Below are positions 5,484 to 59,863 of a stretch of DNA of 64,000 bases, one piece after another. Made by a program: the position numbers and the translations under genes. The notes under the pieces were generated by a model. That model worked only from the letters and a program-made list of their open reading frames with translations. It had not been told where the DNA came from and made no database searches. Every line of letters starts with the position of its first letter. Within the stretch, counting starts at the first letter, position 1. Source of the DNA: Escherichia coli (GTDB lineage: Bacteria; Pseudomonadota; Gammaproteobacteria; Enterobacterales; Enterobacteriaceae); assembly GCF_030013595.1 (NCBI RefSeq), contig NZ_CP122768.1. One strand, written 5' to 3'.

Positions 5484-6111
5484 TATGTATTCCCTTGTGA
5501 TTATAATCTTCATGAATATATCAATAAGTGCTGTTATCCAAAAAAAAGCACATTTGGATACTATTCTATGAAGTTCATTTTATTTTAAAGATTACATGTA
5601 ACAAATGTATTTAAAAGATTTCAAAATGTTTCCAATCTGTTTAATATAATTCAGAATTATGAATTCTGAATATAAATATTCACGAATATTATGAATGCAT
5701 ATCAATATGTTATGAGTTGAGCGGAAACATAGGGAGTATCAATGATTGTTGTGCTAAACGGCTGGTGTGATCTCGCGCACATTAATGAAGGCATAAAAAA
5801 AGCCGGCATCATGCCGGCCCAAAAAATATAAACAAGACGATAAAAGGCTAATAACGGAAGCATCATGACACAGAATAATAAAAAGGGATAATTGTAATCA
5901 GTGCTAATATATTGATTGAATGAATTAATAAAGCCGATATCAAAGATAAATAAAATCGCTCAAAACGATTTTTCCTGTATTCACTGCCATTGCGCAAAAA
6001 TTATCTATTTGTTCAAAAAATGATTGAGTCTTGACTGGCTCATCCAATGTGGAAAAATGTGACTTTTATCACATAATAGTACTAAGTCTGAATTTTCCGG
6101 GTTATCTCAAA

Positions 6112-30223: not shown

Positions 30224-30637
30224 ATGAAAAAACTCGCAATTGCAGGCGCGCTCATGTTGCTGGCGGGCTGTGCCGAAGTCGAAAACTATAACAATGTCGT
30301 GAAAACCCCCGCGCCGGACTGGCTGGCGGGCTACTGGCAGACCAAAGGGCCGCAACGTGCGCTGGTCAGTCCGGAAGCGATAGGCAGCCTGATTGTCACT
30401 AAAGAGGGCGATACCCTCGATTGCCGTCAGTGGCAGCGGGTGATTGCCGTGCCGGGTAAATTGACATTGATGTCTGATGATCTCACTAACGTTACCGTAA
30501 AACGTGAGCTGTACGAGGTTGAGCGTGACGGTAACACCATTGAGTACGATGGTATGACGATGGAGCGTGTGGATCGCCCGACGGCAGAGTGTGCCGCCGC
30601 GCTGGATAAAGCGCCGTTACCGACGCCACTGCCGTAA
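30224..30637 (+). CDS. yedD: lipoprotein YedD
   Basis: ORF 30221..30637; lipobox LLAGC; 137 aa. Confidence 0.88.
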   Translation: MKKLAIAGALMLLAGCAEVENYNNVVKTPAPDWLAGYWQTKGPQRALVSPEAIGSLIVTKEGDTLDCRQWQRVIAVPGKLTLMSDDLTNVTVKRELYEVERDGNTIEYDGMTMERVDRPTAECAAALDKAPLPTPLP

Positions 30638-30670
30638 TGAAATCTCCCCGGCTTGCCGCCGGGGATGAAT

Positions 30671-32158
30671 TTAAATCACCTCTTCGATAACCCACACGCT
30701 GACGCTGCCGCCGTTGCAAAAGAAGGTCGCTTCGCCGTTTTCGTCAGTCACTACGCTCTCTTGCCGGTTCCCCAGAAAATCACGCCAGGTTTTATTGCCG
30801 TAATTCTCTCCCAGATGAATGGTTTTTTCGCCATCATCCCCGTTCGACATGACCACCACGCAGCCGGGATATTCGTCAGTGCCACTGCGGCTAAAGGCAA
30901 TGCAGTTCGGATGGTCGAAAAATAACGTCTGTACACCGTGGGCGAAACGCTGACGGGCGAGAATTAACTCATCAAGCTGTTCGATTATTGGCATATCTAT
31001 CGGATAGGTTTGCCCGTCACCACCGACATCTTCGTAATGCGCACCGTAGAGGTCCGGATAGAACACCGAAGGAACGCCATTTTCCCGCAACAAAATTAGA
31101 GCATACGCCAGCGGTTTAAACCACGGTTCGACCGGCGCTTCGAGGGCTTGCAACGGTTGGGTGTCATGATTGGCAACGAGGGTTACGGCGTGGAAAGGAT
31201 CGGCTTCCACTAATGTACCCGTGAAAATCTGCGTCATGTCGTAGTCGCGCCCCATGCGCGATGCTTCATGGAATTTCATCTGCAGCGGCGCATCAAACAG
31301 CATGGTTTTGCCTTCCACCTGATCAATATACGTTTGCAGTTTATCGACTTCATGCGACCAGTATTCAGCCACAATAAATAGCGGCTTTGGTGCAACTTCC
31401 TGTACGTGTTCGATCCACTCTTTATAAAACCACGCCGGAATATGTTTGACCGCATCAAGACGAAAACCGTCGCATTGCGTTTGTTCCATCACCCAGCGCG
31501 CCCAGTATTTAATCTCTTCCGTCACGGCATGATTGCGGAAATCGATATTCTCGCCCATCAGGTAATCGAAATTACCGAGTTCATCATCAACCTGATCGTT
31601 CCAGCCTTCGCCGGTGTAGTCGTTAACAATTTTAAAAATGCCATCTTCATCAGGGTTTTCGATATGGTCGATACCGCTAAAACATTTAAAATCCCAGATA
31701 AACTGCGAGTATTGCCCGGCACGTGCGGGGAAGGTGTAACGCGTCCAGCCTTCGCACTCAATGATTTCTTCGTCAATTTGCGTACGATCGTCAGCATTTA
31801 CACGCTGCACGCGAATAGCTTCTTTTTCATCCGCGCCCATTTTGTGATTGACTACCACGTCCAGCAGCACCGCAATGTCATTACGTTTCAGAGCGTCAAT
31901 GGCGGCCAGCAGTTGTGTTTTATCGCCATATTTAGTAGGGATGCTGCCTTTCTGATCAAACTCGCCTAAATCAAATAAATCATAGGAGTCGTAGCCGACC
32001 GAATACCCGCCCGATGCGCCTTTATAGGCGGGCGGCAACCAGACCATATTGATACCAATATCATTAAAACCGTCGGCGCGCTCGGCCAGTTCAGGCCAGA
32101 GCTTACCGCCTTCCGGGTAATACCAGTGAAAACATTGTAACAGCGTGGGATTACGCAT
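30671..32158 (-). CDS. amyA: cytoplasmic alpha-amylase
   Basis: 495-aa ORF, GH13 motifs. Confidence 0.93.
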
Positions 32159-32235
32159 TCTTCGACTCCATTCAAGGGGAACATTAGAAGCGTAGCCGTA
32201 ATCGGATTATTCGCGAGCCATCGGCTCGTTAAGAT

Positions 32236-32601
32236 TCAAAAGAGGTTATCCTGCGGAGCCAGCACAAAGCCGCCCTGATCGCCATAGGCACTTAACACCG
32301 ATTTTTGCATCGATGACTGACCGACCAGTTTCGCCAGTTCATCCATCCGAATCTGTAATAACTGCTTCACCTTGCTTTCGTTATCGAGAATCAGGCGCAG
32401 CATCGGGCGGAGTTGCTCCTGCATCGTGGTGGACGGCTCAACCTCTTCAGTCAGGTGTGCAATCTCCTGCACCGCATTCACATACGCCATTTCGCTGGCG
32501 ATGAGTTCGTCCCACTGTTCTTCCGTTGCCAGGCGTAACATGAGCTGGCTTTTTTCGACGAGTTGTTGCCAGGCGAAATACAAATGCGGTGCGTGGTTCA
32601 T
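32236..32601 (-). CDS. fliT: flagellar chaperone / FlhDC anti-activator FliT
   Basis: 121-aa ORF. Confidence 0.92.
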
Positions 32602-46565: not shown

Positions 46566-46652
46566 GCCCGGATGGTGGAATCGGTAGACACAAGGGATTT
46601 AAAATCCCTCGGCGTTCGCGCTGTGCGGGTTCAAGTCCCGCTCCGGGTACCA
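46566..46652 (+). tRNA. leuZ: tRNA-Leu (anticodon TAA), long variable arm
   Basis: gcccggatggtggaatcggtagacacaagggattTAAaatccctcggcgttcgcgctgtgcgggttcaagtcccgctccgggtacca. Confidence 0.95.
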
Positions 46653-46694
46653 TGGGAAAGATGAGAATAAAATCAAAGCAATAAGCAGTGTCGT

Positions 46695-46720
46695 GAAACC
46701 ACCTTCGGGTGGTTTTTTTG
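46695..46720 (+). terminator. rho-independent terminator of the tRNA operon
   Basis: aaccaccttcgggtggtt hairpin followed by T-run. Confidence 0.75.
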
Positions 46721-46782
46721 TGTCTTCTTTCTCATTTCCGAAGATGCGTCCGAAGATGATTTTTCTCTGGACGCATCATCAT

Positions 46783-48992: not shown

Positions 48993-51214
48993 GCTGTTTG
49001 CTCCTGTGCTGCGGTGAGGGCGGTGAGGCGTTCGGTTTTGATTTCATTCAAACGGCGCAGGCGCGAACCAAGATAAGTTGAATACTCCTTATCACCTTTG
49101 GATTCTGCGGCCTTGCGGTGAACTTCTACTTCCCGCGCAATAAGGCCATAGACTTTATTAACTTCATTGGGGGTTACGGCTGCAGCCAGTGTTTTGGCAA
49201 CACCTGAGAGTCGTTCATCCAGTTCTTCACGCAGTCGGGTAGCATCCTCTGCTTTCTCGCTTGCCTTCTTAATACTGTATTCTGTATTCAGCTCGGCGGT
49301 GTAGGCACTATCGTTATGCATATCCATATAAACATCTGCCGCAAATCCCAGATGAGATAGTGCTTTGACGGTGGCATCAGTAAGAGACTTTTTGGAGGCC
49401 TCTTTTTCCATTACCAGTGCCCCTTTGTTATTTTTTGATATGTAATCCGTGTGGCCATATGACGGAATAAATCCTTTCACTCCGTTCCAGATGTACCAGA
49501 GATCTATCCGGATGGTGTGTACTGACAGGCAGAACAGGGAACCGTCAGCATCCCTGACAGGTTTTTGTCCAATAATTTTCCCTGTCTGATCCTGTATAGG
49601 TTCAAGTAATGGCACACCGCGATCCACTCGCTCCTCCTTGATTTCAACTCCCCAACCAATGCCTTCCATTCCCAGCACTTCAGTCGCACGCATCAAAATA
49701 TATTGTGCGCGTATGGAGTGCAGTCCTGCACCGTAATCATTATGTGTGACATACGCAGGATCGGTCCGCTGAACGCGATTCCAGATAGCCAAATTTGCTT
49801 TGCTCTGGTCATCATTCATTGCTGACAGATAATGCTCCATGCGAATTGATGCAGTTTTTTCCTCGGCATGGGGCGGCTCAACCAGCGCGTCAACGTTCTG
49901 CACCAGGTCTTTTACCTGCTCGCTAAGTTTTTCTTGTGGAGGAGTCTCTTCTGCCGGGGTAATAGCTGCAGGTTCCCTCTGTGATACGGCGTTATTTTCA
50001 GGTACGTCATACACATGGCGAGGCGTGACAAACTGCTCACGCAACTGCTGCAAACTACGTTCTCCAGCATTTGCTGCTTCGCTTTTTTCGCCCTGATTTG
50101 AGGGTGTTTCTGACATCATTCCATCAATTGAGAATCGCCCGCCGCCGTGGTTGGTGACTTTTACATCATCCTTTGGTGCTGTTTCCTTTGGCTTCTCTTC
50201 AACAGCATTTGCATCACGCTGCCCGTTAGCTTGCAGCCAGTTGTCGATGTGACTGCGCAGGGATTGCGGGAAGTGGTACGTGTCTTTTGCGGGGGCGCTC
50301 TGAATAACACCGAATACTGATGCGCGGTCATAGGCAAGGATCTGATCCGTTGTGCGCAAGGCCATTGACCAGCGTTTAAAATCCTCCCGATCCTGGCTGA
50401 TTATTTCGTCTGCCGCTTTCAGGACGCTGGGGGTGATTTTTTCCGGGCCAACGGGTAACAGGGCGCAGGCAATTTCACGATCCAGTGTGGCGTGAGTCTG
50501 TTGGTAAGGACGTGCGGATGCTGTTTCTGGTTTTACCTCCGGCAGCATTTCATCGCGTTTACCGGGATTCTCTACCCATTTTTTTATAAATTTGGAGATA
50601 GTCCAACTGGTCGGGTTTTGTTCCTGGGTATCGCAACTTGCCAAAATTGCATGTACCAGATTATTCAATCCAGCAATATGCATGTACTCGATGGGCTTAC
50701 ACGCCACCATGGCATCAAGAACGATGCGGTTAAACGCGTCAACCTCATCCTCACTGTCAGTATCACTGTTGTCGAGCATCTCCAGGTATTCACGCGTCTG
50801 CGCAAGCAATTCACTGTCGACTTCGTTGGCGTCGTGGCTGAACAGCAGGACGGCGGCGAAGCGTTCACGAGCCGGCAGTTTCATCAGGTCGTTAACCTGT
50901 GCGATATCTGCTGAACCGCTATCTGAATCAGCGGGGGTGTTAACTACCCATTTTTCGCCATCAAAACTGTGTTCTGTGGCAAACGTCTCATCAAACTCAC
51001 CGACGCCAGGGCGCGGTTGGCCCGGGGCATCTTCCCAGATTTTAGGTTTGAAATAGTTGTCGCCGTGGTCAGGGTAGGCTTCCCACAATTTGCCGATGAT
51101 GATGTTCTCGGCAACTTTTTTGTTAGGGGCGTCGATGGCGATGGCCAGCGCCGGGATCGCGCCGTTTTTGAGCGCGCCTTTTTTCGCTTCTAACAAGCCG
51201 TTAAAGATGGTCAT
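48989..51214 (-). CDS. large phage protein: acidic N-terminal region fused to Rad52-like single-strand annealing domain
   Basis: 741-aa ORF; C-terminal FCLSVHTIRIDL...SYGHTDY...KALSHLGFAADVY resembles Rad52/Sak core. Confidence 0.55.
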   Translation of the reverse strand: MTIFNGLLEAKKGALKNGAIPALAIAIDAPNKKVAENIIIGKLWEAYPDHGDNYFKPKIWEDAPGQPRPGVGEFDETFATEHSFDGEKWVVNTPADSDSGSADIAQVNDLMKLPARERFAAVLLFSHDANEVDSELLAQTREYLEMLDNSDTDSEDEVDAFNRIVLDAMVACKPIEYMHIAGLNNLVHAILASCDTQEQNPTSWTISKFIKKWVENPGKRDEMLPEVKPETASARPYQQTHATLDREIACALLPVGPEKITPSVLKAADEIISQDREDFKRWSMALRTTDQILAYDRASVFGVIQSAPAKDTYHFPQSLRSHIDNWLQANGQRDANAVEEKPKETAPKDDVKVTNHGGGRFSIDGMMSETPSNQGEKSEAANAGERSLQQLREQFVTPRHVYDVPENNAVSQREPAAITPAEETPPQEKLSEQVKDLVQNVDALVEPPHAEEKTASIRMEHYLSAMNDDQSKANLAIWNRVQRTDPAYVTHNDYGAGLHSIRAQYILMRATEVLGMEGIGWGVEIKEERVDRGVPLLEPIQDQTGKIIGQKPVRDADGSLFCLSVHTIRIDLWYIWNGVKGFIPSYGHTDYISKNNKGALVMEKEASKKSLTDATVKALSHLGFAADVYMDMHNDSAYTAELNTEYSIKKASEKAEDATRLREELDERLSGVAKTLAAAVTPNEVNKVYGLIAREVEVHRKAAESKGDKEYSTYLGSRLRRLNEIKTERLTALTAAQEQTA

Positions 51215-51244
51215 TGGTCTTTCCTCATTACAGGTCAGTGGTCT

Positions 51245-51565
51245 TTAGTAGGGGATTTCATCAGTATCTGGCGTGTATTCGATGCAAAGTAACTGCTGGA
51301 TTTTGTCATCGATAGCAGCAATACGCTGTTGGGCGTCGGCGACTGTTTTCTGTTTTTGCTCATACAGCTGCTCGACCTGCAAACCGATGATGTCGATTGG
51401 CTGGGGCTGGTTGACGGTAATTTCAATTTCGCGGCTTTCCAGAAGGATGTACCTGTCTGGAAAATTTTTTGACATATCAACAGTCGCAACAAGCAGCTTT
51501 TCGTGGCTGAAAGTTGAAGTTGCATAATTAATAAAGAGTGTTACTGGGATGGTGCGCGCTTCCAT
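51245..51565 (-). CDS. hypothetical phage protein
   Basis: 106-aa ORF with AAGGAG RBS. Confidence 0.5.
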   Translation of the reverse strand: MEARTIPVTLFINYATSTFSHEKLLVATVDMSKNFPDRYILLESREIEITVNQPQPIDIIGLQVEQLYEQKQKTVADAQQRIAAIDDKIQQLLCIEYTPDTDEIPY

Positions 51566-52561
51566 AGCGACTCCTTGGTGATGTATACTCGGGACCGATC
51601 AGCGAATATTGATCAGCTTCCATAGCGTCAGTGTCGTTGGTCTTTCCTCATCACAAGTTTGGTCACTTGTGATAAATCCGAATGGTTTGGTCGCCGTTCG
51701 GGGTAACTGGCCCGCCTTGTGCGGGTCTTTTGCTATCTAAAGGGTGCCGGTTACGTTTCCGGCGTCGTTATGTTTCCATCACGACCGTACGGGGCTGGTC
51801 TTTCCTGTTTTGAGCTGGTCAGGCTCATGGTCAACGCTGGTCAGGCGTGGTACTTCCTCCGGTCTTTCCCTGGTGTCACGCTGCGGGTTTGGCCTCTCCT
51901 GTTGGGGACTCAGGCACAGCGATAAAACCTGGCTGTGTGAAAAAATGGCCCATCGTGCGGACTGGGCAAAGGCTAAACACAGCAAATTGATGATGGGCGC
52001 CCGGAATCGAACCGGGTAACGGGCAGGGAGTTCCCGTTAAACACCTGTTCACCACAACCGGGAGCGCACTCCGCCATTTCAAAATTTAACGACAAAGCTC
52101 AAAGTTGAGTCGATGAAGTGCGCTCTCGTGTTGTAGCCAGGACTCTTCCCTGGTGGTCACACCGTATCGCCTTGATGGTGAATCAATCGCTCATACCTGG
52201 CTGTGGCTTGCACATTCCGGCTAGCTGCTATGGAGACAACGCGTTAAGGCTCCGCTTCCATCCAGACCGCTTCGACACATGTGCCATATGCCGGCGAAGT
52301 CTTTCCCTCTGTCATCGTGTTGGCGCCGACGCGCAAAATTTGATGCCGTCTTTCCGGCTGTCAGAACGTGTTTCTGAACAACTGCCGCTGGGTAAGCGTT
52401 GTTGATGAAAGTGACTTTACAATTTGTATTTGTAATGGTCAACGTATTTTTAAAAAATAATTTGTAGTTAGGGGCAAAAAAATATTCACTGTGTAAAGGT
52501 GTTTTTGTGTTAGGGGGAAAGTTGCATGCCAGCAGCGGCTGGCCTGGAAATTTGAACTGAA

Positions 52562-52975
52562 CTATTTTGTCTGGTTTTTGGCTTCAAGTAGTTCTTTTAG
52601 CAGTAGATCGAAGTGCTCTCTTTTTTCTTTTAGCTCATTGATTAATTTATTTTTTTCGCTCTCAGGCAGTCCTCTGAATAGTTGCAGTAGAGCCTGTTCT
52701 TGCGGGGTTAGTTCTTGATTGTAATTACCCGGGTGTAGCGTGGATTCATCCAAATATTCACCTTCATTCATGAAGAAAAAATGAACAGGGTATCCGGTCA
52801 CTTTTGCTAGCTTGTCTAATTTATCTTTTCTTGGAGTTACCCCATTACACCATGCCTGAACTGATTGAGCCGTAACCCCAATATGGCGAGCTAACTCAGA
52901 TTGAGACCAGCCTAAGTCTTTTAGAATCCGTTGTAGTCGGCTAGCAAAAGCCATGTTTTTCGTTTTTGTGTTCAT
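52562..52975 (-). CDS. phage repressor-like HTH protein (cI-like)
   Basis: ORF 52562..52990 opens on TTG; HTH (GWSQSELARHIGVTAQSVQAW); divergent from cro-like gene; start uncertain. Confidence 0.7.
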   Translation of the reverse strand: MNTKTKNMAFASRLQRILKDLGWSQSELARHIGVTAQSVQAWCNGVTPRKDKLDKLAKVTGYPVHFFFMNEGEYLDESTLHPGNYNQELTPQEQALLQLFRGLPESEKNKLINELKEKREHFDLLLKELLEAKNQTK

Positions 52976-52994
52976 ACCGTAAGGATACAAGGTT

Positions 52995-53060
52995 TAATTG
53001 TAGGGAGCATTGCAAATATAATTTGTAATTACAGTTATGATTTGTAATGATGGCGCGGAC
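52995..53060. promoter_or_regulatory. candidate operator/promoter region between divergent repressor and cro-like genes
   Basis: Repeated ATTTGTAAT half-sites (ttgcaaatataatttgtaattacagttatgatttgtaatga). Confidence 0.45.
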
Positions 53061-58649: not shown

Positions 58650-58976
58650 ATGACTAAAAATACTCGTTTTTCCCCCGAAGTCCGTCAGCGGGCGATTCGT
58701 ATGGTTCTGGAAAGTCAGGATGAATATGACTCACAGTGGGCGGCAATTTGTTCCATTGCCCCAAAGATTGGCTGTACGCCGGAGACTCTGCGTGTCTGGG
58801 TTCGCCAGCATGAGCGGGATACCGGGGGCGGTGATGGTGGGCTCACCAGCGCTGAACGTCAGCGTCTGAAAGAGCTGGAACGTGAAAATCGTGAACTGCG
58901 CCGCAGTAACGATATCCTTCGCCAGGCTTCCGCTTATTTTGCGAAGGCGGAGTTCGACCGCCTCTGGAAAAAATGA
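58650..58976 (+). CDS. IS3-family transposase OrfA
   Basis: 108-aa [25 protein letters not shown] recognised as IS629/IS1203 OrfA. Confidence 0.9.
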
Positions 58977-59863
58977 TGCCACTGCTGGATAAGCTGCGTG
59001 AGCAGTACGGGGTCGGACCGGTATGTAGCGAACTGCATATTGCCCCGTCAACGTATTACCATTGTCAGCAACAGCGACATCATCCGGATAAACGCAGTGC
59101 CCGTGCGCAGCACGATGACTGGCTGAAGAAAGAGATACAGCGCGTATACGATGAAAATCACCAGGTATACGGTGTGCGTAAAGTCTGGCGTCAGTTGTTA
59201 CGGGAAGGTATCAGAGTGGCCAGATGCACTGTGGCACGTCTCATGGCAGTTATGGGACTTGCCGGTGTTCTCCGGGGTAAAAAGGTCCGCACTACCGTCA
59301 GCCGGAAAGCCGTTGCCGCAGGCGACCGCGTAAACCGTCAGTTCGTGGCAGAACGACCTGACCAGCTGTGGGTGGCTGATTTTACTTACGTCAGCACATG
59401 GCAGGGCTTCGTCTATGTGGCGTTTATCATTGATGTGTTTGCCGGATACATCGTGGGGTGGCGGGTCTCATCGTCTATGGAAACGACATTCGTGCTGGAT
59501 GCGCTGGAGCAGGCGTTGTGGGCCCGTCGTCCGTCTGGCACCATCCATCACAGCGATAAAGGCTCTCAGTATGTGTCACTGGCCTATACGGAGCGACTAA
59601 AAGAAGCCGGATTACTGGCATCAACAGGGAGTACAGGCGACTCGTATGACAACGCGATGGCTGAGAGCATCAATGGTCTTTACAAAGCGGAGGTAATACA
59701 CCGTAAGAGCTGGAAAAAACGTGCAGAAGTGGAACTGGCCACACTAACGTGGGTGGACTGGTATAACAATCGACGATTGCTGGGAAGGCTGGGCCATACT
59801 CCTCCGGCAGAAGCAGAAAAAGCTTATTATGCTTCCATCGGAAACGATGATCTGGCAGCCTGA
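58973..59863 (+). CDS. IS3-family transposase OrfB (DDE integrase-like)
   Basis: 296-aa ORF overlapping orfA in -1 frame. Confidence 0.9.

Follow-up and report, generated by a model that had tools for sequence, protein, structure and literature searches.

Several temperate phages control their own early transcripts through small RNAs. In P1 and P7 (immI) and in P4 (seqA, seqB and seqC), a small phage RNA pairs with repeated sites in its own early transcript, ribosome-binding sites among them, and the specificity of these RNAs (C4 of P1/P7, the CI RNA of P4) differs between related phages through matched changes in RNA and target. On the host side, the 3' external transcribed spacer of glyW-cysT-leuZ (3'ETS-leuZ) is a known sponge of small RNAs (sRNAs) in E. 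coli K-12. Prophage IsrB RNA has been detected in lysogens and is ProQ-associated (PMC2330248, PMC7067206, PMC5391140), STnc6030, an antisense RNA of a prophage, serves as a self-specific exclusion factor (PMC7067206), and the last 47 nt of RprA are a natural species active in vivo (PMC9262595). Here we compare with these systems an approximately 1-kb prophage segment poor in open reading frames (ORFs), positions 51566-52561 of a 64,000-nucleotide stretch of E. coli contig NZ_CP122768.1, which as a whole we call the window.

Far from being junk or a dead gene, this kilobase contains at least two conserved RNA genes that annotation has missed, one for a large structured RNA on the minus strand and one for an antisense sRNA on the plus strand. 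Rfam 15 and all genome annotations examined lack both, and no description of them turned up when the literature was searched by topic and by sequence string. The segment is probably the non-coding leader of a repressor-controlled early-left (PL-type) operon with four separable RNA modules.

The large structured RNA and its genomic settings

The kilobase is bounded by a 106-aa gene (51245-51565, minus strand), the first leftward gene past the repressor, and by the helix-turn-helix (HTH) repressor gene (52562-52990, minus strand). At its repressor end a PL-like promoter (Table 1) stands amid operator-like repeats of the ATTTGTAAT type that recur on the cro side, in the operators at 53008-53049 (direct repeats D6 and D8, palindrome I1), which argues that the region is the leader of a PL-type operon. 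A preliminary description, made from the sequence alone, had placed the segment where lambdoid phages carry N and nut functions, and the promoter and repeats bear this out. Locus L050 has the same layout, with the cI terminator followed by the promoter and then the large RNA. Of 5,426 complete E. coli genomes, 480 have the region sequence at 95-100% identity, JJ1886 and other ST131 strains among them, and PGAP annotates no feature in the region across those 480. The region had also been called GC-rich; its GC content (approximately 0.54 over 51600-52400) is indeed higher than in the adjoining immunity region (0.38-0.45), but the enrichment is only modest.

The large RNA was discovered by blastn against phage genomes, where window positions 52122-52293 proved approximately 72% identical to unannotated gaps in very different phages: the Uetakeviruses SPN1S, Tyrion and PAT1 (in the gap between the large terminase and portal genes), the Klebsiella phages SopranoGao and ST512-KPC3phi13.3, the P1-like SJ46 and the syntenic prophage-like genome BUCT708. 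A first alignment displayed invariant blocks interspersed with hairpins whose stems vary in compensatory fashion. Homologues collected with an invariant 17-mer came from at least 120 viral contigs and comprised 118 unique sequences, or 44 clusters at 93% identity. Alignment A2 contains these 44 non-redundant homologues, and helices P1, P2, P4 and P5 and two loop-to-downstream pairings (PK1 and PK2) were tested on it.

Comparison with homologous prophages was the check that the preliminary description had proposed, and it supported the idea of a structured, non-coding leader. In A2, 98.2% of 1,354 cells were paired, versus 25-48% when the partners were slid. Eleven pairs had changes on both sides (98 cells), and none of 500 shuffles attained the observed covariation score. 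PK2, which joins the loop UUCACCA to GGUG, covaries from CACC/GGUG to AACC/GGUU in four sequences. The closing helix P6 pairs approximately 52133-52117 with 52075-52056 around a variable 41-nt insert; it shows the compensatory variants GAUGAG/CUCAGC, AGGUAAG/CUUUCC and CAAAAG/CUUUUUG, with G-U at 48 of 346 pairs. Frequent G-U pairs (43 of 44 sequences at one position) occur in the minus sense only and would be A-C on the opposite strand, so the RNA is read from the minus strand of the window. More than 50 positions are invariant across phages of several host genera.

Helices P1, P2, P4 and P5 and the PK2 pseudoknot are thus supported by covariation, and the element forms a new structured-RNA family. 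Its covariance model (CM), R1, was built from A2 with the window sequence included, and the match in the window (52113-52297, minus strand, model positions 1-183, 137 bits, E 1e-38) is therefore one by construction; independent members from P1 and from GTDB genomes match at 118-183 bits. In Rfam 15, no family reached its gathering threshold in the window except tRNAs, DsrA, rseX and ALIL, all of them elsewhere, and a scan of 51200-52700 at E<=10 gave chance-level matches only over the core of the large RNA.

These results also bear on whether the region encodes, or once encoded, a protein. It had been suggested that the segment could be a decayed gene or carry a small arginine-rich protein in the 73-aa ORF at 52221-52442. 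ORFs of 68-95 codons do exist on both strands, and one includes ARRRQHDDRGKD. The ORF listing, however, yields only short, overlapping and unconserved frames between the 106-aa gene and the repressor, as had been noted at the outset. Stops occur in every frame among the homologues, and they interrupt the 73-aa frame, whose start falls within the -35 of PL, in every homologue examined. The variable hairpins keep their pairing through indels of lengths not divisible by three, three-frame translation of 51560-51945 gives fragments only, and the 480 genomes have no PGAP annotation here. Homologous prophages carry no intact gene in place of the region; in the gene-bearing variants L129 and L130 a cassette has been inserted between PL and the RNA. 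A protein-coding origin is therefore very improbable. An ATG within one hairpin of the large RNA was considered as a gene start and rejected, since ORF length and frame vary among members.

A search of the genome collection with R1 found full-length copies in 24 contigs (118-183 bits), 22 of them from Enterobacterales genomes; the other two are short contigs binned as Bacillota and Lachnospiraceae, which carry true copies and were probably mis-binned. Matches to the 17-mer in GTDB genomes outside Enterobacterales (L141, L164, L155 and others) were mostly due to chance, with no CM match. Phage P1 carries a copy at 71020-71221, between trnI and ban (138 bits), at a site where its 535-feature record annotates nothing, and P7, D6, Stx2c phages, epsilon15-like phages and Enterobacterales prophages likewise carry the RNA. 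It occurs in approximately 11% of complete E. coli genomes, pandemic ST131 included, and is unannotated in all 625 E. coli genomes examined. As a separate observation, an STnc100 match below threshold (33 bits versus 47) lies on the P1 plus strand at 70080-70199 (L171 781-900), upstream of tciA, in the same operon as the large RNA.

Transfer RNA genes are frequent neighbours. In 34 of 127 loci a tRNA-Arg(tct), anticodon UCU, begins 0-1 nt 3' of P6, and in eight of the 127, all P1-like, a tRNA-Ile2 ends approximately 12 nt 5' of the large RNA. Every adjoining tRNA is on the same strand, with gaps of 0-12 nt. Loci with no called tRNA show remnants, namely 5' halves with a D-arm-like hairpin, T-arm-like hairpins in the P6 insert or, in the window, a variable-arm-like hairpin with a perfect T-arm and CGCCCAUCA. 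The P6 inserts of L003 (approximately 2993-2890, SPN1S), L010 and L014, for example, contain T-arm-like hairpins such as GTCAGTTCGATTCGGAC and TGCGGTTCGATTCCGCC together with pieces resembling tRNA 3' ends, and the large RNA seems to have taken up tRNA fragments repeatedly. The promoter side also has recurring features. In lambdoid loci the RNA starts 45-110 nt after the PL-like promoter that follows a cI-like gene, and in Uetakeviruses it is preceded by a conserved TTGAC(A/C)-17-TACCTT element overlapped by an ATTACC...GGTAAT palindrome. The downstream genes vary by context: recombination genes, DUF2829, ban or none.

This distribution best fits a discrete trans-acting RNA whose ends are set by tRNA enzymes, and fits a riboswitch less well. 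Most likely, tRNA-type processing sets the large RNA free as a stable species, and a conserved host machine is the most likely candidate for its target. Expression, processing and function are predicted here from sequence comparison for all modules. The PL transcript would begin with the approximately 245-nt pseudoknotted RNA and continue through a decayed tRNA into a tail that is similar to processed RprA and ends at an intrinsic terminator. This PL-proximal transcript would then be cut by RNase P and RNase E into discrete stable RNAs, on the model of the T4 stable RNAs beside tRNA-Arg and of tRNA 3' trailers.

Two other functions were weighed. The location of the RNA relative to PL-type promoters is that of nutL and putL, and a cis-acting processive antiterminator (an analogue of HK022 put or N/nut) that reads through the terminator at 51967-51940 would let polymerase reach the recombination, xis and int genes. 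No gene for an N-like protein is present, strong terminators follow the large RNA in lambdoid and Uetakevirus loci, and the invariant positions would fit binding to a conserved host enzyme. Nevertheless, we consider antitermination unlikely. R1 run with filters off over HK022 23500-32500 found nothing above 5 bits, and the RNA is three times the size of put and occurs as one copy per genome with no PR-side partner. The P1 copy, between trnI and ban, is followed by no terminator, the SopranoGao copy lies at the genome end past the lysis genes, and RNase P cutting at an abutting tRNA would detach the RNA from polymerase.

A cis-regulator sensing a ligand or tRNA (a riboswitch or T-box-like element), or a self-cleaving ribozyme that processes the tRNA-containing transcript, seems less probable still. 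The RNA has the complexity typical of such elements, with one covarying pseudoknot, a second invariant candidate and many invariant junction nucleotides. Its P5 loop, GAAGAGN, displays AGA, the codon of the tRNA-Arg(UCU) that abuts in 27% of loci, and its P4 loop ends in CACCA, which resembles a tRNA 3' end and pairs with GGUG. However, the P5 loop is the same in P1-like copies beside tRNA-Ile2, the genes downstream vary with the context, none of the known ribozyme or riboswitch families matches, and no adjacent expression platform is evident. A stable, processed, trans-acting RNA remains the reading that we prefer.

The antisense small RNA and the start-site signature

The sRNA gene lies on the plus strand at the far end of the leader (Table 1). 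Its family was assembled by searching with a 19-mer from the terminator and filtering for the -10, the seed and the loop pattern, which gave 78 loci and 34 variants; matches sharing the terminator hairpin only were unrelated elements and were removed by this filter. Members have a -10 hexamer of TATACT, TAGAAT, TACAAT or TATAAT and a single-stranded block, (C/G)(A/G)TTGGT(C/T)(T/A)T(T/G/A)C(C/T)(T/C), followed by SL2, a third hairpin and the terminator. For SL2, all 195 cells were paired (100%), four of the six pairs had double changes, and many U-G pairs occur in the plus sense. The two subfamilies align differently over SL1 and SL3, and the covariation test covered SL2. Relative to BUCT708, the terminator part is approximately 95% conserved, and the 8-bp hairpin upstream of it has a wholly different sequence with its pairing and TTGGTC loop kept. 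The large RNA is present in only 22 of 75 sRNA loci, which indicates that the two are independent modules.

Two further terminator-like hairpins follow the sRNA terminator on the plus strand (51743-51766 and 51783-51800). The second incorporates another GGTCTTTCC, and a read-through sRNA would carry extra anti-signature elements. Separately, the sRNA-bearing prophages L256 (8142-8289) and L267 (14168-14315), of the CATGACC and CATAACC signature classes, abut ryeA/sdsR, which suggests that they integrated at or beside this sRNA gene pair.

The repeated motif and the duplicated start-like segment gctATGGAAGC that had been pointed out earlier are both real. The duplication (51557-51576 and 51615-51634, repeat family D2) stems from an insertion of approximately 30 nt that is confined to a subset of the sRNA family (alignment A4). 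The motif, GGTCTTTCC, has seven exact copies in the window against 0.38 expected, and none of 100 shuffles reached seven. What had been overlooked is that it belongs to a plus-strand antisense sRNA and its targets. Copies inside the region are at 51639 (in the seed), 51797 and 51861, with two further GTCTTTCC 8-mers at 52299 and 52348. All copies lie within the prophage and read GGAAAGACC in the sense of local transcription, that is, in the mRNA sense. A DNA-level operator was rejected for GGTCTTTCC, since the copies follow the direction of transcription on both prophage arms and several stand in Shine-Dalgarno (SD)-ATG contexts. A tandem array of the type III toxin-antitoxin kind was also rejected, since copy spacing is irregular and there is no toxin gene.

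The seed is the exact reverse complement of a 15-nt SD-spacer-ATG signature, in its window form GAGGAAAGACCnATG, which stands at four gene starts (Table 1). For the best predicted trans target, the start of the 741-aa gene, the predicted duplex has -40.6 kcal/mol, compared with a mean of -23.8 (SD 5.6) over 62 ORF starts. Two more GGAAAGACC sites, in the leader, are candidate decoys; the block that contains them is approximately 90% conserved with BUCT708, and in sister loci the equivalent sites lie approximately 143-201 nt upstream of the seed, some with an intact ATG.

The minus-strand face of the sRNA gene carries the start-like remnant GAGGAAAGACCAACG at 51640, which could be taken for a dead gene start and is instead the antisense image of the seed. 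In sister loci the same position holds an intact GAGGAAAGACCAATG heading a short ORF. In the window, a 31-codon upstream ORF (51623-51528, minus strand) runs out of frame across the start codon of the 106-aa gene, and translational coupling of the two under control of the antisense sRNA is possible.

Across the family there are five seed classes and a two-locus TAGG variant, and each matches the signature of its own phage, a 15-16-mer that stands before several genes on both genome arms. The classes pair seed CATTGGTCTTTCCTC with signature GAGGAAAGACCAATG, CATTGGTCATGCCTC with GAGGCATGACCAATG, CATTGGTCATACCTC with GAGGTATGACCAATG, CATTGGTTATGCTCC with GGAGCATAACCAATG, and CATTGGTTTATGCTCC with GGAGCATAAACCAATG, the last containing a 1-nt insertion. 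In a swap control that excluded the self site antisense to the seed, the own-class motif occurred 0.95-5.0 times per locus of approximately 10 kb. Other-class motifs occurred zero times except for the GAGGTATG class against the GAGGCATG and GAGGAAAG classes; the control allows one mismatch, and GAGGCATG and GAGGAAAG lie one or two mismatches from GAGGTATG. Complementarity of the seed to the SD and start codon, with matched changes in both, is what a base-pairing repressor of translation initiation has. Two points are non-trivial: signatures are uniform within a phage and different from one phage to another, and the sRNA has a bona fide gene, structured and equipped with a promoter and a terminator of its own.

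We propose that the sRNA would pair with the signature start sites and block translation, and that it might pair also with the extra GGAAAGACC sites of the leader as decoys, possibly destabilising or terminating the leader transcript. Immunity would thereby gain an RNA layer whose addressing is specific to each phage, analogous to P1 c4.

The same sites could instead be conserved gene-boundary linkers or scars of lost cassettes, with an incidental antisense transcript and no regulation in trans. Lambdoid early regions are known for mosaic boundaries, two GGAAAGAC repeats (52299 and 52348) flank a cassette insertion point, the copy at 51640 resembles a gene junction with stop codons, an SD and a mutated ATG, and seed complementarity follows automatically from the antisense position. 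Linkers that serve recombination between phages, however, should be common to those phages; here they are group-specific and uniform within a group, and the seed changes along with the signature, the 1-nt insertion of GGAGCATAAACCAATG included. Across its 34 variants the sRNA keeps a -10 of its own, a terminator and covarying hairpins in which U-G pairs occur in the plus sense, and its positional homologue IsrB is a detected RNA (PMC2330248). On balance, the linker explanation has a low probability, and we favour regulation by the sRNA.

Table 1. Features of the leader and of the predicted sRNA targets, in window coordinates
Feature	Position	Strand	Details
PL-like early-left promoter	52414..52470	minus	-35 TTGACC 52442-52437, 17-nt spacer, -10 TAAAGT 52419-52414; promoter scan
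Two TGACAGnnGGAAAGAC repeats	52299..52363	minus	sense 52314-52299 and 52363-52348; repeat family D11; flank the cassette site
Large structured RNA, ~245 nt	52052..52297	minus	core helices P1-P5 52297-52113; closing helix P6
Degenerate tRNA (pseudo-tRNA)	51991..52052	minus	variable-arm-like hairpin; canonical T-arm CCCGGTTCGATTCCGGG 52016-52000; 3' acceptor-like CGCCCAUCA
Processed-RprA-like module UUUGCUGUGUUUAGCCUUUGCCC with intrinsic terminator	51940..51989	minus	hairpin 51967-51948, U-tract 51945-51940; terminator scan
Two leader GGAAAGACC sites	51869-51861, 51805-51797	minus	RBS-like, no usable start codon; candidate sRNA-binding (decoy) sites
Antisense sRNA gene, ~140 nt	51584..51733	plus	-10 TATACT 51584-51589; predicted start ~51596
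sRNA seed CGTTGGTCTTTCCTC	51635-51649	plus	motif singled out in the preliminary description
sRNA SL2	51650-51673	plus	loop TTGGTC
sRNA SL3	51678-51702	plus	loop includes TTTGGTC
sRNA terminator	hairpin 51709-51727, TTTT 51728-51731	plus	terminator scan
Antisense face of the sRNA	51528..51647	minus	start-site remnant GAGGAAAGACCAACG (ATG to ACG) and 31-codon ORF
Signature start GAGGAAAGACCAATG, 741-aa exonuclease-family gene	51214..51228	minus	best predicted trans target
Signature start, DUF4224 gene beside the integrase gene	48031/48033	minus	motif scan
Signature start, 74-aa gene after ydaT	53869/53879	plus	motif scan
Signature start, 136-aa gene after the helicase gene	56599/56609	plus	motif scan

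Other leader modules and the standing of the overall reading

The large RNA is followed by a degenerate tRNA, in the place where other members have an intact tRNA-Arg(UCU). ARAGORN found no tRNA or tmRNA in the region, and for 52052-51991, assessed as a tRNA (RF00005), the best score was 19.3 bits to tRNA-Sec versus a threshold of 47. On reading the sequence, the T-arm and the variable-arm-like hairpin alone are intact and the acceptor strands are unpaired. Next comes the RprA-like module, likely the 3' end of the PL-proximal non-coding transcript. BUCT708 carries AAUUGCUGUGUGUAGUCUUGGCC here, near-identical to the most conserved block of RprA. The same block with a long terminator hairpin also lies behind tRNA-Arg in Uetakeviruses and behind the large RNA in other lambdoid loci, so that RNA, tRNA and tail form a cassette that moves as a unit.

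Between PL and the large RNA lies a cargo insertion point. By BLAST, the E. coli prophage variants L129 (2275-2787) and L130 (2277-2956) have 0.5-0.7 kb inserted between window positions 52340 and 52364, exactly between the two GGAAAGAC repeats. The insert holds a leftward gene of 74 or 124 aa and a small coiled-coil-like gene on the opposite strand, which could be cargo or a toxin-antitoxin-like pair.

The wider window is an E. coli chromosome segment with DsrA, rseX and glyW-cysT-leuZ, and the prophage integration point is directly 3' of leuZ (46566-46652 and downstream, approximately 46653-46780). From Pfam and PGAP context, the leftward prophage genes encode an integrase, a DUF4224 protein, a Gp157-family protein and the 741-aa exonuclease-family protein; the immunity and early-right side encodes the HTH repressor, a YdaS-like Cro, a YdaT protein, replication proteins and a helicase. 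An IS3-family element with the ALIL frameshifting pseudoknot lies inside the prophage at 58931-59047, and in the near-identical prophage of strain HCP5S3_I2 an IS3 copy splits the exonuclease-family gene (L001 5092-6305). Type I-E CRISPR arrays of E. coli TUM1586, EC2001 and 2020CK-00188 match the leader at 51829-51861, 52291-52323 and 51634-51666. Two of these three matches were inspected and are exact 32-33-nt spacers between I-E repeats, and the third match overlaps the sRNA seed. The P5 loop of the large RNA was considered as an sRNA target and rejected, with 7 bp only, in some members, and none in the window.

Our best explanation of the whole, a modular RNA leader with an antisense sRNA that represses the signature genes, is held with moderate confidence, and several observations weigh against it. 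For the large RNA, PK1 (loop GCACAU with AUGUGC) is invariant in A2 and gives no covariation signal, and P6 is absent in P1-like copies. For the sRNA, the -35 of the window subfamily is poor (TTCCAT-like), the window copy has a 30-nt insertion in its 5' part, and the ATG to ACG change at 51640 leaves a G-U between the seed and a target AUG. The match of seed and signature is partly automatic, as the sRNA is antisense to one signature copy, and any homogenisation of start sites within a phage would yield it without regulation. The only Rfam signal over the sRNA (51596-51733, plus strand) is a weak match to isrB (RF01386), 15.2 bits with E 1.3 versus a threshold of 35, where Gifsy-2 IsrB-1, as a positive control, scored 99.3 bits; genuine IsrB, moreover, has no 15-nt single-stranded seed to a multi-gene signature. 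The RprA-like module (51989-51940) scores 34 bits (E 0.075) against RF00034, whose threshold is 70, and the sister loci L002, L256 and L259, at 50, 44 and 38 bits, all stay below it as well.

Both RNAs matter beyond this locus. A strongly conserved, covarying RNA was missed in P1, among the best-annotated of phages, and is a concrete new target for phage RNA biology, while the sRNA offers a testable explanation for why unrelated genes of one phage share an identical, phage-specific ribosome-binding region. If it controls the signature genes, recombination, excision and replication-region genes would be under a second, RNA-based layer of immunity, which would bear on how stable prophages are, on superinfection and on efforts to engineer orthogonal translation control. 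The presence of an RprA-like tail hints that prophages may draw on the host RprA/RpoS network. More generally, ORF-poor stretches beside phage repressors can be dense in RNA genes that standard annotation misses.

A joint reading goes further and is tentative. It would combine a new pseudoknotted RNA class (in P1, epsilon15-like, Stx2c and Rac-like phages) with a phage-specific "translation-start code" read by sRNA seeds. In its first part, the large RNA would have a conserved host machine as its target or serve as a sensor of tRNA-Arg(UCU), through the AGA of the P5 loop and the CACCA mimic of the P4 loop that pairs with GGUG, and T-box-like logic would then exist in Gram-negative phages. In its second part, each phage lineage would place an identical 15-nt SD-spacer-ATG on key genes and encode one sRNA reading it, so that groups of immunity or exclusion would exist at the RNA level, separately from the protein repressor.

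Comparison with described RNA systems

Rfam at gathering and at permissive thresholds, applied to the window, sister loci, P1 and Gifsy-2, explained neither the large RNA nor the sRNA, and the comparisons below concern position, architecture and proposed mode of action. The large RNA shares the genomic position of HK022 put and lambda nut, just after PL and ahead of terminators, in a phage that lacks an N gene. It differs in having approximately 245 nt with a covarying pseudoknot and an invariant candidate, against approximately 70 nt and two hairpins in put, and in being single-copy and occurring also outside leaders.

T4 rnaC and rnaD offer an architectural parallel, as structured non-tRNA RNAs flush with a phage tRNA-Arg(UCU) on the same strand, with ends that tRNA-processing enzymes can make. 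In T4 the order is tRNA-Arg, rnaD, rnaC, while in the loci described here the RNA precedes the tRNA and its processing is predicted; no sequence or CM similarity was found between the two. Spacers of the 3'ETS-leuZ type resemble the window arrangement in that a short regulatory RNA is the trailer of a tRNA, and MALAT1-mascRNA processing belongs with these parallels. GOLLD and ROOL are likewise elaborate, conserved, phage-borne RNAs that often lie beside tRNAs with no associated protein. The large RNA is much smaller, is restricted to Enterobacterales phages and has no match to those Rfam models.

What the tail has in common with the processed 47-nt form of RprA is that RNA's most conserved block, UUGCUGUGUGUAGUCUUUGCCC, with a terminator hairpin and U-tail directly after it. 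The alignment is confined to the 3' half of RprA (conserved block and terminator), and the module sits in a phage leader after a tRNA or pseudo-tRNA, unlike RprA itself, which is a stand-alone Rcs-regulated gene.

In its proposed mode of action the sRNA is most like C4 of P1/P7 and the CI RNA of P4 (RF01695), a family whose CM gave no match at E<=10 to the sRNA or region. It differs from C4 in having its own promoter (-10) and terminator, where C4 is processed from a leader, and in its predicted targets, which are the starts of several dispersed genes in both early operons.

In position and orientation the sRNA agrees with IsrB. IsrB-1 and IsrB-2 (of Gifsy-2 and Gifsy-1) are also prophage-borne and lie on the plus strand between two leftward early-left genes, and in both IsrB-1 and the window the -10 is just behind the start site of the first gene of a recombination or exonuclease operon (exonuclease VIII in Gifsy-2). 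The coordinates are CAT 51563-51565, SD 51572-51577 and -10 51584-51589 in the window, and CAT 5953-5955 and -10 TAGAAT 5976-5981 in Gifsy-2. Both RNAs have a hairpin loop with UUUGGUCG and a Rho-independent terminator. The window sRNA is approximately 50 nt longer and has the extra hairpin SL2. The window sRNA is a distant relative or positional analogue of IsrB rather than a member of its family.

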